43,538 bases of DNA from a virus (Duplodnaviria; Heunggongvirae; Uroviricota; Caudoviricetes). Below are positions 27,242 through 33,283 of the stretch, piece by piece. The notes under the pieces are model-generated. The model had not been told where the DNA came from and did not search any database. It was given only the letters and a program-made list of their open reading frames with translations. Location of the stretch: the IMG/VR virus record IMGVR_UViG_2687453364_000004. One strand, written 5' to 3'. Numbering within the stretch: position 1 is the stretch's first letter; the number at the start of each line of letters is the position of its first letter. A program made the translations under genes and the position numbers.

Positions 27242-27688
27242 GCTTCACCTCCACAGAGGTCAGACGCTAGATGCAAAAAAACGCAGGTGCATTTCTGCAT
27301 CTGTGAAGGGAGAAGAGAGTTTGGATTGTGTGTGCGCATAAACGTCCCCGTTTAGCGCAGAAGTCACCGGAGTTGTTCAGGCTCCGGTGATACAATTATG
27401 GCGAATTGATTATTCATAATCAAACAAGATAAGGTCTCAAACTTCATGCAAGCCAAGATTTATTTCTGACAGAATTATACAAAGAAGCTATTGGTCAGAA
27501 TCTACTCGGACTGTAAAACATACGCATAACCTTAAGCTCTCACTTTAAGCATTGTTGAAATAATAGCCGTCAAGTACAACCTTAACCACGACTGGGATAT
27601 TTCCCTGGCTACCACGAGTTGTACGGCTATTAAACTGCCGTTAAATTTAGTAAGAGAATTTCATCCGATAAGTCAAGGCATGTAAAAC

Positions 27689-28732
27689 ATGAAAATTAAC
27701 AAGATATTATCATCTGCAACACTATTGTATGGTATGTCAATGGCCATGTCGGTCGGGAGTTGTGCAACACCTGTCCAGACTAATCTTCCTGGTTACACCC
27801 CGGGTGCAGATATCATTAGTGTTTCACCGACCAGAAACCAGGTCGATCTCATTGGTGATGTTGTTTATTCCCAGATAAAAGGAACTCGTTCTGTCAGACA
27901 GCTTCACATGTCAGTTCTTGTCCCGCGAACAAATGATTTAAAACCAGCCATTATTTATTATCCCGGCGGCGGATTCATGTCTTCTGAACATGACAAATTT
28001 ATTGAAATGAGAATGGCTCTGGCAGAAGCTGGTTTTGTTGTGGCCGCTGTAGAATACAGAACAATTCCTGATACATTTCCAGCACCAGTTGAGGATGGAA
28101 AAGCTGCAATACGTTACCTGAGAGAGCATGCCAGCAATTATGGGATTGATCCTCAAAGAATCGGAGTTCTGGGTGACTCTGCCGGTGGATGGCTTGCCCA
28201 GATGATGGGAACTACAAATGGTGACAAAACCTTTGATAAAGGTGACTTTCTTCAGCAATCCTCAGATGTTCAGGCAGTTGCCACACTTTATGGGATTTCT
28301 GACTTGTTGAATATTGGCGAGGGGTTCCCTGAATCAGTGCAGGAGGTTCATCGCTCTCCTGCCGTAACCGAAGCCTTAATGATCAATGGCCCTGCATTCA
28401 GAAATTTTGCGGGAGCCCCCATCACAGCGTCAAAAGAAAAAGCGCTAAACGCCAGTCCAATCGGACATATGAAAGGAGTAAAACCCCCATTTCTTATTAT
28501 GCATGGTAGCAAAGACACTCTGGTTTCACCTGAGCAAAGCGCCAAACTATTCAGGATGTTGAAGAAGAACGGTGATAACGCTGAGTACGTGCTGGTAGAA
28601 GGGGCCGAGCATGGCGATAAGACATGGTATCAGCCAATTATTATAAACAGAGTCGTTGAGTGGTTTACTAAAAACCTGGGAGCGCCTATAAAAACAGCTC
28701 CCCAACAACAAAACCCAAACGCTAACCTGTAA
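27689..28732 (+). CDS. secreted lipoprotein alpha/beta-hydrolase, family IV (HSL-type) esterase/lipase; cargo gene
   Basis: 347 aa; signal peptide with a lipobox-like SVGSC; oxyanion-hole motif PGGGF and nucleophile elbow GDSAGG; opposite strand to the phage early-right operon. Confidence 0.75.
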   Translation: MKINKILSSATLLYGMSMAMSVGSCATPVQTNLPGYTPGADIISVSPTRNQVDLIGDVVYSQIKGTRSVRQLHMSVLVPRTNDLKPAIIYYPGGGFMSSEHDKFIEMRMALAEAGFVVAAVEYRTIPDTFPAPVEDGKAAIRYLREHASNYGIDPQRIGVLGDSAGGWLAQMMGTTNGDKTFDKGDFLQQSSDVQAVATLYGISDLLNIGEGFPESVQEVHRSPAVTEALMINGPAFRNFAGAPITASKEKALNASPIGHMKGVKPPFLIMHGSKDTLVSPEQSAKLFRMLKKNGDNAEYVLVEGAEHGDKTWYQPIIINRVVEWFTKNLGAPIKTAPQQQNPNANL

Positions 28733-28735
28733 AAA

Positions 28736-31700: not shown

Positions 31701-33034
31701 GCCGTCGAGACACCACTATCAGTAACGCTAATATTCATCACGGCATAGTTGGAAACGTTGCCTCTGTTATCCTGTACTGTGGCTCCAACATTCCACGAAT
31801 TTACACCTTCGCTTTTATAAGCCGGTAAAGTGATCTGCCATGATGTGCCATTTCCACTGATCTTGCCGCCAGCCGCAGTGAATGCACTATCATTCCACTG
31901 TACAGACTTGATACCACCACTAGCATTGTTGATTGTCAGTGTTACAGGGATGATTGATTCCCCCTCCCCCTGAACAGACTCTGGCAAACTGATTTTCAGT
32001 GCATGCTTCTTCTTGTACTCCAGAACAATGTTGTTATTTCGTTCAACAAAATCATAACGCCGGTTCTGGACTTCTCGCATAACTGCAACATTATCGCTGC
32101 TAAGCTGTTCAGCCAAGGAAACGCCCGGGCGATAATTAAACTCAACACCAAAGGTTGTATCGTGAGTGTTGCTCTGTCCTTGCTTATGCTGTGCAGAAAA
32201 CTTAATCAGAGGAACTGGTGTATAAGAAATTCCCCCAGTAACTGCGTAAGGGTTTTCCTGCAGGTTATCGCTTCCAAATAACCCGACATTTTTACCATAA
32301 TATTTTTCAAACTGAATAGATGCCCCTAATTGCGGATAAGCAGGTAGCCATCCTTCAGCAGAAAAATCCCAGCCATTTGCAGGTCTTTCCAGATAATCAT
32401 CAATATCACGACTGTTCTTCCAGTCAGATAGACCAAAATAGGTATTTACACCAAGCCTGAAATAATCCCTCCAGTACTCAACCCCAAAACCTGCACGAGA
32501 GTGACTACGACTTAAATCGTAATCATAGAAAACATTCGCACCCAACATTGCGTTATCAGGAGTGAAATGACGAATCCCCAAACCAATATTGGTCTGATTT
32601 CGGTCATCAGTACGATGTAGTGATGTCTGACTGAATAACACATAATCCTGAGTATCCAGCCATGGATATAAAAAGTCGAATGATGAATCCTTCAAGGAAA
32701 AAGAATCATCGACATTAAGCTTGATGCGCGCATTGCCATATTGTTGCAACCAGTCGACGACCTCTTTTGTCGCCTGAGTTGATAAAGTATTTACAGCAAA
32801 ACTACTTGCATTATTATTCGCCAGGCTCTGACCTGCACTTGCTGCAAATGAGGCCACTTTATTTGCATGCTCATCGCTGGCATAAATTTGCGTAACATCT
32901 TTATTACCAGATGATGCAAAACTGTTTGCTGGGATCAAAGAAAGAGAAACTGGAGATAATATCTGGGTAACAATTACCGACCATGTAATCGCGCCAGATG
33001 CAGTTTTTTTTAACTTTTTATTCACAGTGGTCAT
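28769..33034 (-). CDS. intimin/invasin-family inverse autotransporter adhesin (FdeC/EaeH-like) with Ig-like repeats; cargo gene
   Basis: 1421 aa; N-terminal signal peptide; beta-barrel region with motifs recalled from FdeC/invasin (ARIKLNVDDSFSLKDSSFDFLYPWLD, HRTDDRNQTNIGLGIRHF, ERPANGWDFSAEGWLPAYPQLGAS, RYDFVERNNNIVLEYKK); then many Big-type Ig-like domains including three near-identical 119-aa repeats; AT-rich 250-bp upstream region. Confidence 0.8.
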   Translation of the reverse strand: MTTVNKKLKKTASGAITWSVIVTQILSPVSLSLIPANSFASSGNKDVTQIYASDEHANKVASFAASAGQSLANNNASSFAVNTLSTQATKEVVDWLQQYGNARIKLNVDDSFSLKDSSFDFLYPWLDTQDYVLFSQTSLHRTDDRNQTNIGLGIRHFTPDNAMLGANVFYDYDLSRSHSRAGFGVEYWRDYFRLGVNTYFGLSDWKNSRDIDDYLERPANGWDFSAEGWLPAYPQLGASIQFEKYYGKNVGLFGSDNLQENPYAVTGGISYTPVPLIKFSAQHKQGQSNTHDTTFGVEFNYRPGVSLAEQLSSDNVAVMREVQNRRYDFVERNNNIVLEYKKKHALKISLPESVQGEGESIIPVTLTINNASGGIKSVQWNDSAFTAAGGKISGNGTSWQITLPAYKSEGVNSWNVGATVQDNRGNVSNYAVMNISVTDSGVSTADSSFTLDGDSSPTISADSQSTYPIVLSLKDSNGKALTGLADDIEMSVEFTADSNSARQRETVTAPSLGAVEEISAGVYRSVLTAGSQAGTVRVTAKVQGKTFTLNIKQAAITDSDVSTADSSFTLDGDSSPTISADSQSTYPIVLSLKDSNGKALTGLADDIEMSVEFTADSNSARQRETVTAPSLGAVEEISAGVYRSVLAAGSQAGTVRVTAKVQGKTFTLNIKQAAITDSDVSTADSSFTLDGDSSPTISADSQSTYPIVLSLKDSNGKALTGLADDIEMSVEFTADSNSARQRETVTAPSLGAVEEISAGVYRSVLAAGSQAGTVRVTAKVQGKTFTLSIKQTATTEPDSEVSAVLTAAPAEQVVGYNINLQLAVKDSQGNAITGDNTLSFYALNQAEGVEFGTVTEKDGVYSATVTSKRAGKITIGVKSDSHDFSGVKKEITFIEDRQQVTFSQFEASQNNALADGKQRNMVTVSLADRFGNVVPGYAVTLSLPAGITQVGGEHAVSTDENGNAIFALISSTPGSYVITAHAGSQMSTELTVTFASNMTGASLSLTPESSSLISNIPANGKDAAVLDVQLTNTNASVNGQKIQLITSSEGLSVPTNIVTDSTGHVSVPLTTVKAGEYTVTARVTDGSHSVESGSVKLTFVPDVASAELNMSVSKQEIVADGSENATVNIQLVDANNNAFTGEVDLTITPSTGASLTSSNLQLDAHGQATTQFTASKSGQYTIQAEYVLDGKRITASQNIDAVTDVKGAVLEITSSASSAVVSDTNNLVFTLLLKSKSGEALSGRALNVKTSGPSKYGALVVDKTTVTTDENGQATVSVHGRTVGSYKLTATLNELGSDVSAVKSFSLYADDANGVLTLTKDPGYETNDGSPVGIYARFVDHFGNPLSGTVEFSAGSEDSPDSQRVKMEPATVTLHWTGNAASEFSTYESGYHWIKAKITNSKNTYEKTIRTYVVKLPEKDS
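30664..31734. repeat. three direct tandem copies of a 357-bp unit (near-identical) inside the adhesin gene
   Basis: identical antisense shadow ORFs in the track at 30929, 31286 and 31643 (357-nt spacing); the protein repeats ITDSDVSTADSSFTLDGDSSPTISADSQSTYPIVLSLKDSNGKALTGLADDIEMSVEF... three times with 1-2 substitutions; repeat boundaries approximate. Confidence 0.85.
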
Positions 33035-33283
33035 AGTTCAATCAACGTTATGAATATAATGAAAAAAATAACTGGTATGACAAGAGGCGCGAAATATACA
33101 GCTCGTTACAAAAAAATCAACTCAAAAATAAAATAAAATCTCTGCATAAACTTTATGGCTAAATGATTTCACAACAATGGAAGAAAAATTTTGTTGCTCA
33201 CGCAATCAATCATTTCGGGCGTTACAACTAGTCCTAGATTATATTCGCTAGGTATACTTTATTTTTAAGCTAATACTTTAGCT

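Follow-up and report, generated by a model that had tools for sequence, protein, structure and literature searches.

Genes in the region between P and ninB

The DNA analysed here (hereafter, the window) is a 43,538-nt stretch of a virus of the class Caudoviricetes (IMG/VR record IMGVR_UViG_2687453364_000004). Mapping of its open reading frames (ORFs) and Pfam matches placed positions 27242–33283, the cargo stretch, between P and ninB/ybcN of a lambdoid prophage. This stretch holds two convergent genes, one for an adhesin of the inverse autotransporter (IAT) family and one for an exported esterase (Table 1). The early-right operon of the prophage runs on the minus strand in the order cro, a gene at the YdaT/cII position, O, P, the cargo region, ninB/ybcN, ninE, ybcO, rusA, ylcG, and Q, and is followed by the lysis genes, iss, and the head and tail genes. 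The identical prophage adjoins icd in Escherichia coli strain 4/1-1 and is also found in many genomes of O25b:H4 sequence type 131 (O25b:H4-ST131). In genomes with the identical prophage, ninB/ybcN is labelled "DNA base-flipping protein YbcN".

An earlier note on this DNA had described about 6 kb of AT-rich cargo carrying a 1421-aa intimin/invasin-family adhesin directly downstream of P in the same orientation, and both points held. The adhesin ORF starts 249 nt downstream of P on the same strand. The G+C content is 0.433 in the adhesin cassette, 0.434 in the esterase module, and 0.301 in the 249-nt region upstream of the adhesin gene, as against values of 0.512 (window), 0.538 (P), 0.568 (structural genes), and 0.50–0.57 (flanking phage modules). 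The AT-richness of the cargo (ca. 0.43) is thus real but moderate.

Table 1 Features of the P-to-ninB region and its flanks in the window.
Feature	Position (nt)	Strand	Residues (aa)	Evidence or remark
cro	35607-35837	-		Early-right operon
O	33982-35001	-		Early-right operon
P (replication gene)	33284-33985	-		PF06992, 3.4e-61; upstream flank of the cargo slot
Adhesin cassette	28737-33293			AT-rich leader, ORF, and G+C-rich T-tailed hairpin
AT-rich upstream region of the adhesin gene	33035-33283	-		G+C content 30%
Adhesin ORF, inverse autotransporter (type Ve)	28769-33034	-	1-1421	IAT_beta, 5.6e-101
β-Barrel translocator domain	32033-32866	-	57-334	IAT_beta and PDB matches
D0			342-441	Intimin D00-like (6tqd, 1.2e-09)
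Repeats			442-798	Three 119-aa Invasin_D3-type Ig domains
Three tandem 357-bp repeats	30663-31725	-	119 each	96-98% identical
Big_1 domains			799-1314	Five domains
Tip	28772-29092	-	1315-1421 (107 aa)	No Pfam match; predicted all-β Ig-like sandwich
G+C-rich hairpin GGGAGGGC-TAA-GCCCTCCC	28737-28757			Between the convergent genes; good T-tail on the minus strand
Esterase module	ca. 27425-28736			ORF and upstream part
Esterase ORF, exported α/β-hydrolase (BD-FAE/CE10-like)	27689-28732	+	347 aa	BD-FAE, 5.7e-45
Upstream part of the esterase module	27425-27688	+		In esterase-carrying phages; absent from phage 82, HK639, and similar
Conserved lambdoid segment	27238-27424	-		orf33/ylcH-like ORF and putative promoter; annotation of phage 82 record X92588.1
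orf33/ylcH-like ORF (33 codons)	27238-27339	-		"Hypothetical protein" in PGAP
ninB/ybcN	26786-27241	-		PF05772, 4.5e-05; 23.7 bits, just under the curated cut-off of 23.8; downstream flank of the cargo slot

Two separately acquired cassettes

The window is homologous to the plaque-forming phage 4A7 over 26000–28736 (98.9% identity) and then again from 33294 on (96.4%), with the junctions exactly at 28736/28737 and 33293/33294. The esterase gene and its upstream region are common to 4A7 and six more isolated lambdoid phages at 99.2% identity. Eight phage records, representing seven isolated phages, carry the esterase without the adhesin, and the interval between P and the esterase gene in these phages contains ren, a QacE/EmrE-type transporter gene, a small hypothetical ORF, and a recombinase gene. 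Lambdoid phages like 82 and HK639 match only 27242–27424 of the cargo stretch. The reverse arrangement, adhesin without esterase, was found in six of 29 close IMG/VR loci (L029–L033 and L036), where the same hairpin is followed directly by orf33 and ninB; the hairpin therefore travels with the adhesin cassette. Both genes were present together in 18 of the 29 loci, and the other five end too early to tell.

Because each module is found without the other, the two were acquired independently, and 27242–33283 consists of two separately acquired morons stacked in a variable P-to-ninB slot. Three proposals of the earlier note are not supported. The stretch is not a single island, since the esterase module and the adhesin cassette have separate junctions and occur independently; a dedicated adhesin–esterase partnership is unlikely for the same reason; and the location is not unusual for a moron, since related phages have different cargo in this slot (in plaque-forming relatives, ren, an EmrE/QacE-type transporter, a recombinase, and also the same esterase).

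The view that neither gene is a phage gene was, on the other hand, supported. Both are absent from otherwise syntenic related phages, and thus dispensable; their junctions are sharp; and their composition is unlike that of the neighboring phage genes (0.43 vs 0.50–0.57 G+C). These results support the adhesin and the esterase as non-phage cargo (morons) in the lambdoid early-right region. Known cargo of this kind includes lom and bor/iss, which encode outer-membrane proteins or lipoproteins that benefit the lysogen, and the genes of DLP12 (emrE, ybcK, and others) between ren and ybcN. The present genes resemble such cargo in being non-essential, in deviating in composition from the conserved phage modules on either side, in having their own terminator, and in encoding envelope proteins; they differ from the classical lambdoid morons in that the cargo is a 4.3-kb type V secretion adhesin.

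Domain architecture of the adhesin

The adhesin matched the Pfam profiles IAT_beta (5.6e-101; aa 57–334, the full profile length), Invasin_D3 (2.3e-61), and Big_1 (8.4e-56). The match to the IAT β-domain in the N-terminal part is the one for which the earlier note had asked. No Pfam match to Intimin_C or LysM was found, and there is no Cys anywhere in the protein. In a sequence search of the PDB, the barrel was closest to Yersinia invasin (4e1t, 1e-73) and then to intimin (4e1s, 7e-63), and the passenger also matched invasin 1cwv. By inspection, the N-terminus resembles a signal peptide: the n-region reads KKLKK, a hydrophobic stretch (AITWSVIVTQILSPVSLSLIP) follows, and an SFA/SS site is located close to residue 41. 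The position of the predicted barrel and the immunoglobulin-like (Ig-like) passenger clearly place the protein in the inverse autotransporter family.

An AlphaFold model of the last 222 residues is all-β, with a predicted local distance difference test (pLDDT) score of 77.8, and its best structural matches are Ig domains of intimin, invasin, InvD, and InvE. The tip therefore appears to lack a lectin cap. It is nearly an orphan: among 1.84 billion cluster representatives, nothing matched convincingly beyond its own cluster and a single fragment at 55% identity. A word-indexed search of proteins with the last 213 aa yielded two fragments and nothing else, and so was not informative. One 1064-aa cluster representative of the adhesin lacks aa ca. 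381–737, from inside D0 into the last repeat; this variant may be a genuine allele with an in-frame deletion or may result from repeats that collapsed during assembly.

Comparison with named inverse autotransporters

The earlier note had called the adhesin FdeC-like. To FdeC (EaeH) it is similar in length (1421 vs 1415 aa), in its signal peptide, in a short periplasmic segment without LysM, in the IAT barrel, and in an all-Ig-like passenger without a lectin cap. Compared with FdeC from a genome carrying the identical island, however, the identity was 33% over 1215 aa (58.6% in the barrel and 28–37% in the passenger), and the tip had no match. FdeC also has no near-identical tandem repeats and is encoded at a fixed chromosomal locus rather than as prophage cargo: in the genome that carries the identical island, fdeC occupies its usual locus (343972–348219), far from the prophage at icd. 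On these comparisons, the adhesin is FdeC-like in architecture only and is an unnamed paralogue.

With Yersinia invasin and the intimins of enteropathogenic and enterohaemorrhagic E. coli, the prototype type Ve adhesins, the protein shares a similar barrel, a first Ig domain that matches intimin D00, and a passenger that matches invasin; it differs from them in having neither a C-type-lectin-like receptor-binding cap nor LysM. It scored below the NCBIfam cut-off for intimin (329 vs 1400) and below every cut-off for the equivalogs IatC, SinH/IatB, YchO/IatA, Ilp, YrIlm, and Inv (IatC_Nterm, 388 vs 2400; SinH, 318 vs 999; YchO, 270 vs 508). The Prokaryotic Genome Annotation Pipeline (PGAP) gives it a generic name only, and in PHROGs it occurs only in families of function unknown.

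The published catalogue of E. coli IATs by Goh et al. (2019) comprises seven groups, intimin, FdeC, YeeJ, and IatA–D, and does not mention phages (PMC6714894). The adhesin belongs to the same PF11924-defined family and is not among these groups. Strain JJ1887 is listed there with only fdeC, iatA, and iatB (PMC6714894); it carries the adhesin gene intact and 100% identical. Among 50,697 phage records, we found no relatives of the IAT β-domain except a mis-filed Salmonella contig and a 2-kb fragment. A literature search by RefSeq accession and keyword, in which subscription-only papers were not covered, found no paper on the phage-borne adhesin or esterase. Neither cargo gene is a new kind of gene; both belong to well-known families, their sequences abound in databases, and PGAP labels the two proteins generically. 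The novelty is modest and lies in a phage-borne, unnamed IAT lineage outside the published catalogue that is length-polymorphic, distally mosaic, under purifying selection, and present in a clinically important clone.

Origin and variation of the adhesin gene

The nearest relative outside E. coli is an Escherichia albertii gene whose contig holds the first 237 residues only (80% identity; 86% in the barrel portion). Its position downstream of ydcR, ydcSTUV, and patD is a chromosomal one, and its nucleotide homology begins ca. 66 nt upstream of the ATG and covers both of the promoter-like hexamer pairs described below. Two loci were found by a genome-contig scan for the adhesin, this E. albertii contig-end fragment and a 357-bp contig labelled Moraxella osloensis (CAXORL010000232.1). 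The entire latter contig corresponds to one adhesin repeat unit at 99% identity, and it most likely stems from contamination by E. coli or from the collapse of repeats during assembly. Two metagenomic IMG/VR contigs (L038 and L039) with an IAT of 66% identity were considered as further phage-borne cases and rejected; the gene lies just outside two different integrases, beside kduI, and is probably a chromosomal neighbor of an attachment (att) site. These relatives suggest that a chromosomal IAT gene, captured along with the region upstream of it, may have given rise to the phage adhesin.

The ratio of nonsynonymous to synonymous substitution rates (dN/dS) between adhesin alleles was 0.09–0.19, as compared with 0.08–0.10 for P. 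In the most divergent allele examined, that of strain EcPF15, dS was 0.05–0.07 in the barrel and repeats and 0.29–0.43 in the distal passenger and tip (28772–30640). These values indicate that the distal end is mosaic, recombining, and under purifying selection, and the distal dS pattern points to recombinational exchange reminiscent of the intimin types. The copy number of the repeat varies from 1 to 4 between strains, and we saw genes of 3552, 3909, and 4266 nt and proteins of 1302, 1421, and 1540 aa.

Properties of the esterase

The esterase matched BD-FAE (PF20434; 5.7e-45, 153.9 bits vs a cut-off of 26.8) and Abhydrolase_3 (PF07859; 1.1e-22, 81.3 vs 25). Ser164 in a GDSAGG motif (G162-D-S164-A-G166), Asp276, His308, and the G93-G-G95 oxyanion loop are invariant in 26 homologues, and the α/β core was modelled with high confidence. 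By both sequence and fold, the nearest structures are a goat-rumen metagenome lipase (6nkf), carbohydrate esterases of the gut microbiota (6xyc and 6tkx), and a bifunctional GH43-CE enzyme of Bacteroides (6mly). The oxyanion motif reads Y-P-G-G-G-F with P92 invariant, so that the literal HGGG of the earlier note does not apply.

All homologues begin with signal peptides. The N-terminus of the esterase, MKINKILSSATLLYGMSMAMSVGS-C25, is signal-peptide-like by inspection, which together with the adhesin agrees with the claim of signal peptides on both proteins. The lipobox S-V-G-S-C25 is non-canonical, with Gly at −2, and falls outside the strict [LVI][ASTVI][GAS]-C pattern; presumably it would fit a looser, PROSITE-style one. 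The esterase of this allele may be lipid-anchored. From the description "lipoprotein esterase of the HGGG/GDSAG family", the exported serine esterase with GDSAGG is retained; HGGG has to be replaced by PGGG, and the lipobox does not have the canonical form.

Homologues of 63–72% identity are encoded on the chromosomes of Dickeya, Pectobacterium, Pantoea, Kluyvera, Klebsiella, and Rhizobium, and one of 66% identity is named "ferulate esterase". In PHROGs, the protein belongs to phrog_3341 ("esterase"). BD-FAE is a family of bifunctional feruloyl/acetyl-xylan esterases (PMC8165983), and FaeD and FaeT, which are feruloyl esterases of Dickeya, are CE10 enzymes of the degradosome for plant cell walls (PMC10319131; 10.1101/568105). 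With these proteins, the esterase shares the BD-FAE profile, the Ser-Asp-His triad, GDSAGG, and the GGG loop, and its homologues of 63–72% identity include exported enzymes of plant-associated Enterobacterales; it differs in being phage-borne in gut or extraintestinal E. coli and in its possible lipoprotein signal, which most homologues lack. It most likely removes acetyl or feruloyl groups from oligosaccharides outside the cytoplasm, as judged from its family. The dN/dS was 0–0.2.

The NanS-p proteins of Shiga toxin (Stx) prophages are sialate O-acetylesterases that do not have an HSL/BD-FAE-type fold and are encoded in the late region downstream of stx. The similarity here is by functional analogy only, namely, a prophage-encoded exported esterase as a metabolic accessory gene for gut E. 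coli. The two differ in fold family and in position (late vs early-right region), and no sequence relationship was seen.

Transcription signals around the cassettes

Two pairs of sigma-70-like hexamers lie upstream of the adhesin gene, at 33083–33056 (TTGTCA-16-CATTAT) and 33120–33093. The proximal ca. 70–80 nt of the leader, including both pairs, are conserved in the chromosomal E. albertii homologue. No terminator was detected in the 249-nt gap between P and the adhesin gene. At the other end of the cassette, the T-tailed hairpin at 28737–28757 would terminate the adhesin transcript.

Beyond the esterase module, a putative promoter that reads into ninB has its hexamers at 27423–27395 on the minus strand; the adjacent inverted repeat is annotated as a "possible regulator-binding site" in the phage 82 record X92588.1. 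orf33 and this putative promoter are kept in lambdoid phages with and without cargo, and the promoter upstream of orf33 could drive nin to Q without read-through across the cargo terminator.

Lambda has pL and N where the interval between cI and kil of this prophage lies. No N-like ORF of at least 40 aa was found between cI (35876–36631) and kil (ca. 37227–37433), i.e., at 36632–37230 on the plus strand, and a terminator-like hairpin follows cI at ca. 36752–36786. An identical N-less immunity region (99.4–99.6% over 2.1 kb) occurs in the plaque-forming phages PhiR34_1 and Turner. This N-less phage group may use N-independent antitermination, perhaps of the HK022 put type. Sliding-window RNA folding downstream of pL and pR for HK022-like put elements gave no clear answer; an Rfam search of the whole window at gathering thresholds gave no match, and an Rfam E-value search of the immunity region gave only chance-level matches. 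The candidates for the transcription route to ninB–Q are put-like RNA antitermination and the promoter upstream of orf33.

Prevalence and retention of the two genes

Among 5426 complete E. coli genomes, 561 carry the adhesin and 681 the esterase, and at least 447 complete genomes carry at least 80% of the whole cargo stretch. The earlier note would have counted it against its reading if the two genes were a standard conserved part of a known phage family at this locus. This is partly so: both genes lie exactly here in ca. 10% of complete E. coli genomes and PHROG families exist for them; they are common, yet not a phage function. The carriers come from dog, koala, bat, dolphin, soil, and river and involve several prophage backbones. 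From 60 evenly sampled adhesin-positive records, 54 have an uninterrupted gene, with three repeats (33 records), two (13), or one (8); the remaining six are split by an insertion sequence (IS) (three) or truncated (three).

The P–adhesin–esterase–ybcN block also occurs in a prophage of different immunity, in a DLP12-like element with ompC/quuD, and in a remnant beside yagU/ykgJ. In these three settings, O, P, nin, or structural genes are frameshifted, truncated, or deleted, and both cargo ORFs are intact. Taken with the dN/dS values, the intact cargo of decayed prophages argues for retention of both genes to the benefit of the host. PADLOC found no defence-model match for either protein.

ISEc23 (IS66 family, 2.5 kb) lies between the two genes in ST131 strain 4433 (NZ_CP103672.1, locus 3006–5422; window ca. 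28716/28717) and removes the last 16 nt of the esterase gene. Other ST131 records have the same 16-nt truncation, at nt 1028. The idea that ISEc23 usually splits the adhesin gene was rejected, because in strain 4433 the element lies between the genes. In a few other strains, ISEc23, ISEc52, or an IS3-family element is inside the adhesin gene.

Other genes of the prophage

The window contains a second, classical moron of the same prophage: iss, for a bor-like "increased serum survival" lipoprotein, lies on the opposite strand (23278–23571, +), with the Rz gene on one side and those for terminase on the other. Close to iss is an ORF labelled "TonB family protein" (ca. 22471–22797, −). In the prophage of strain EcPF15, which has the same adhesin–esterase block, a gene for a DGQHR-domain protein (20080–21144 of that locus) lies in the left operon among the exo/bet/gam-side genes and may be defence-type cargo in another variable slot. 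A repeat search of the window found no direct repeats of an att site within it; therefore, the window probably does not include both ends of the prophage.

Discussion

We consider it likely that the stretch is explained by two separate morons, one for an adhesin and one for an esterase, in the P-to-ninB slot of a lambdoid, icd-integrated prophage of ST131 and other lineages. This explanation builds on the gene identities, the domain architecture, the modular junctions, the independent occurrence of the modules, their prevalence, and the purifying selection described above. For expression, adhesion, and the substrate of the esterase, we propose the following model.

By analogy with its family, the adhesin would be exported by Sec, its 12-stranded N-proximal barrel would enter the outer membrane with the β-barrel assembly machinery (BAM), and the passenger would pass outward as a hairpin and build up a rod with some ten Ig-like domains: D0, the three repeats, the five Big_1 domains, and the lineage-specific tip. 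IatB, IatC, and IatD are surface-located and promote biofilm formation when expressed (PMC6714894), and the rod may likewise mediate adhesion or biofilm formation. Its length would be tuned by the repeat copy number and its distal part diversified by recombination. Because pR is repressed in a lysogen, expression of the adhesin there should depend on the AT-rich leader; the gene would most likely be read from its own promoter, which, as for other E. coli IAT genes, would probably be silenced or conditional in an H-NS/LeuO-type manner. Upon induction, transcripts from pR would also cover the gene, which comes first after P, and the hairpin at 28737–28757 should stop unmodified polymerase. The esterase, with its Ser164-Asp276-His308 triad, would act on plant- or host-derived oligosaccharides in the periplasm or at the surface as a metabolic accessory gene.

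Several observations count against parts of this model. Promoter-like matches in the region are not above those in shuffled sequence (10 found vs 12.9 expected), and no Shine-Dalgarno sequence is evident upstream of the adhesin ATG. Since the tip is almost without relatives, no receptor can be deduced from it. For the esterase, Cys25 is shared by no homologues other than the two closest, and the representative sequence of the 97%-identity cluster has Tyr in its place. The protein is under every NCBIfam equivalog cut-off (PaeX, 47 vs 550), and its substrate is therefore assigned by family resemblance only. In addition, the 16-nt loss in ST131 implies that the native C-terminus is dispensable in that lineage.

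An alternative is that the adhesin serves the phage, either as an induction-coupled delayed-early product that makes induced cells or debris adhesive or as a surface shield for superinfection exclusion. Its gene follows P directly on the same strand, and no terminator was detected in the gap; the N-less interval between cI and kil is shared with plaque-forming phages; and because the cassette ends in a strong terminator and orf33–ninB has a putative promoter of its own, transcripts from pR could stop after the adhesin. However, the adhesin is absent from all isolated relatives and thus dispensable for phage growth, and it is intact in remnants without replication, lysis, or structural genes, which points to a gain for the host that does not depend on the phage cycle. 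Outside E. coli, its closest relative, the N-terminal fragment of E. albertii, is moreover chromosomal with the same upstream hexamers, and the search for defence models found no match. We therefore regard this alternative as unlikely.

Very unlikely, in our assessment, is a functional pair in which the esterase de-O-acetylates a host or bacterial surface glycan to give the ligand of the adhesin or remodels the surface of its own cell to let the adhesin stand out from it. Most carriers have the two genes side by side (the 18 IMG/VR loci and at least 447 complete genomes given above), and both products would be exported, judging from their N-termini. Nevertheless, each gene is found without the other in otherwise syntenic phages or prophages, the junction of the modules is exactly at the terminator, and the convergent genes are separate transcription units. 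ST131 genomes of the clade C type have an IS66 element between the genes with the esterase clipped, and the esterase homologues of plant-associated bacteria are stand-alone chromosomal genes. The least credible alternative is that both genes are functionless hitch-hikers whose prevalence reflects the clonal expansion of ST131: many carriers are near-identical ST131 genomes, insertion sequences lie in or beside the genes in some strains, and no phenotype is reported in the literature searched, but dN/dS is well under 1 between alleles with dS of up to 0.17–0.43, the 4.3-kb adhesin ORF is uninterrupted in 54 of the 60 sampled records, hosts, lineages, and prophage backbones are diverse, and both genes are intact where neighboring phage genes are degraded.

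Two separate morons kept for the host thus remain our preferred explanation, and neither gene alters the understanding of prophage cargo in principle. A wider reading joins three elements: the adhesin may be the first IAT demonstrated to travel on and spread with a lambdoid temperate phage, it may represent an eighth lineage of E. coli IATs that has no name, and its expression may be induction-coupled, given the first position after P, the absence of N, the cassette terminator, and the restart at orf33–ninB. Taken together, this combination seems unlikely to us. If the induction coupling were true, SOS-induced cells would become adhesive or biofilm-forming in a coupling like that of Stx, which could aid gut or urinary colonization by ST131.

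ST131 is the dominant multidrug-resistant extraintestinal E. coli lineage, and its colonization factors are only partly known. The adhesin is a large, conserved candidate surface adhesin found in this lineage and a target for work on adhesion, biofilm formation, colonization, and vaccine antigens. It would also exemplify type V secretion adhesins that move by transduction, and the esterase gene, which is a second accessory gene and moves separately, may broaden the utilization of dietary or mucosal glycans.

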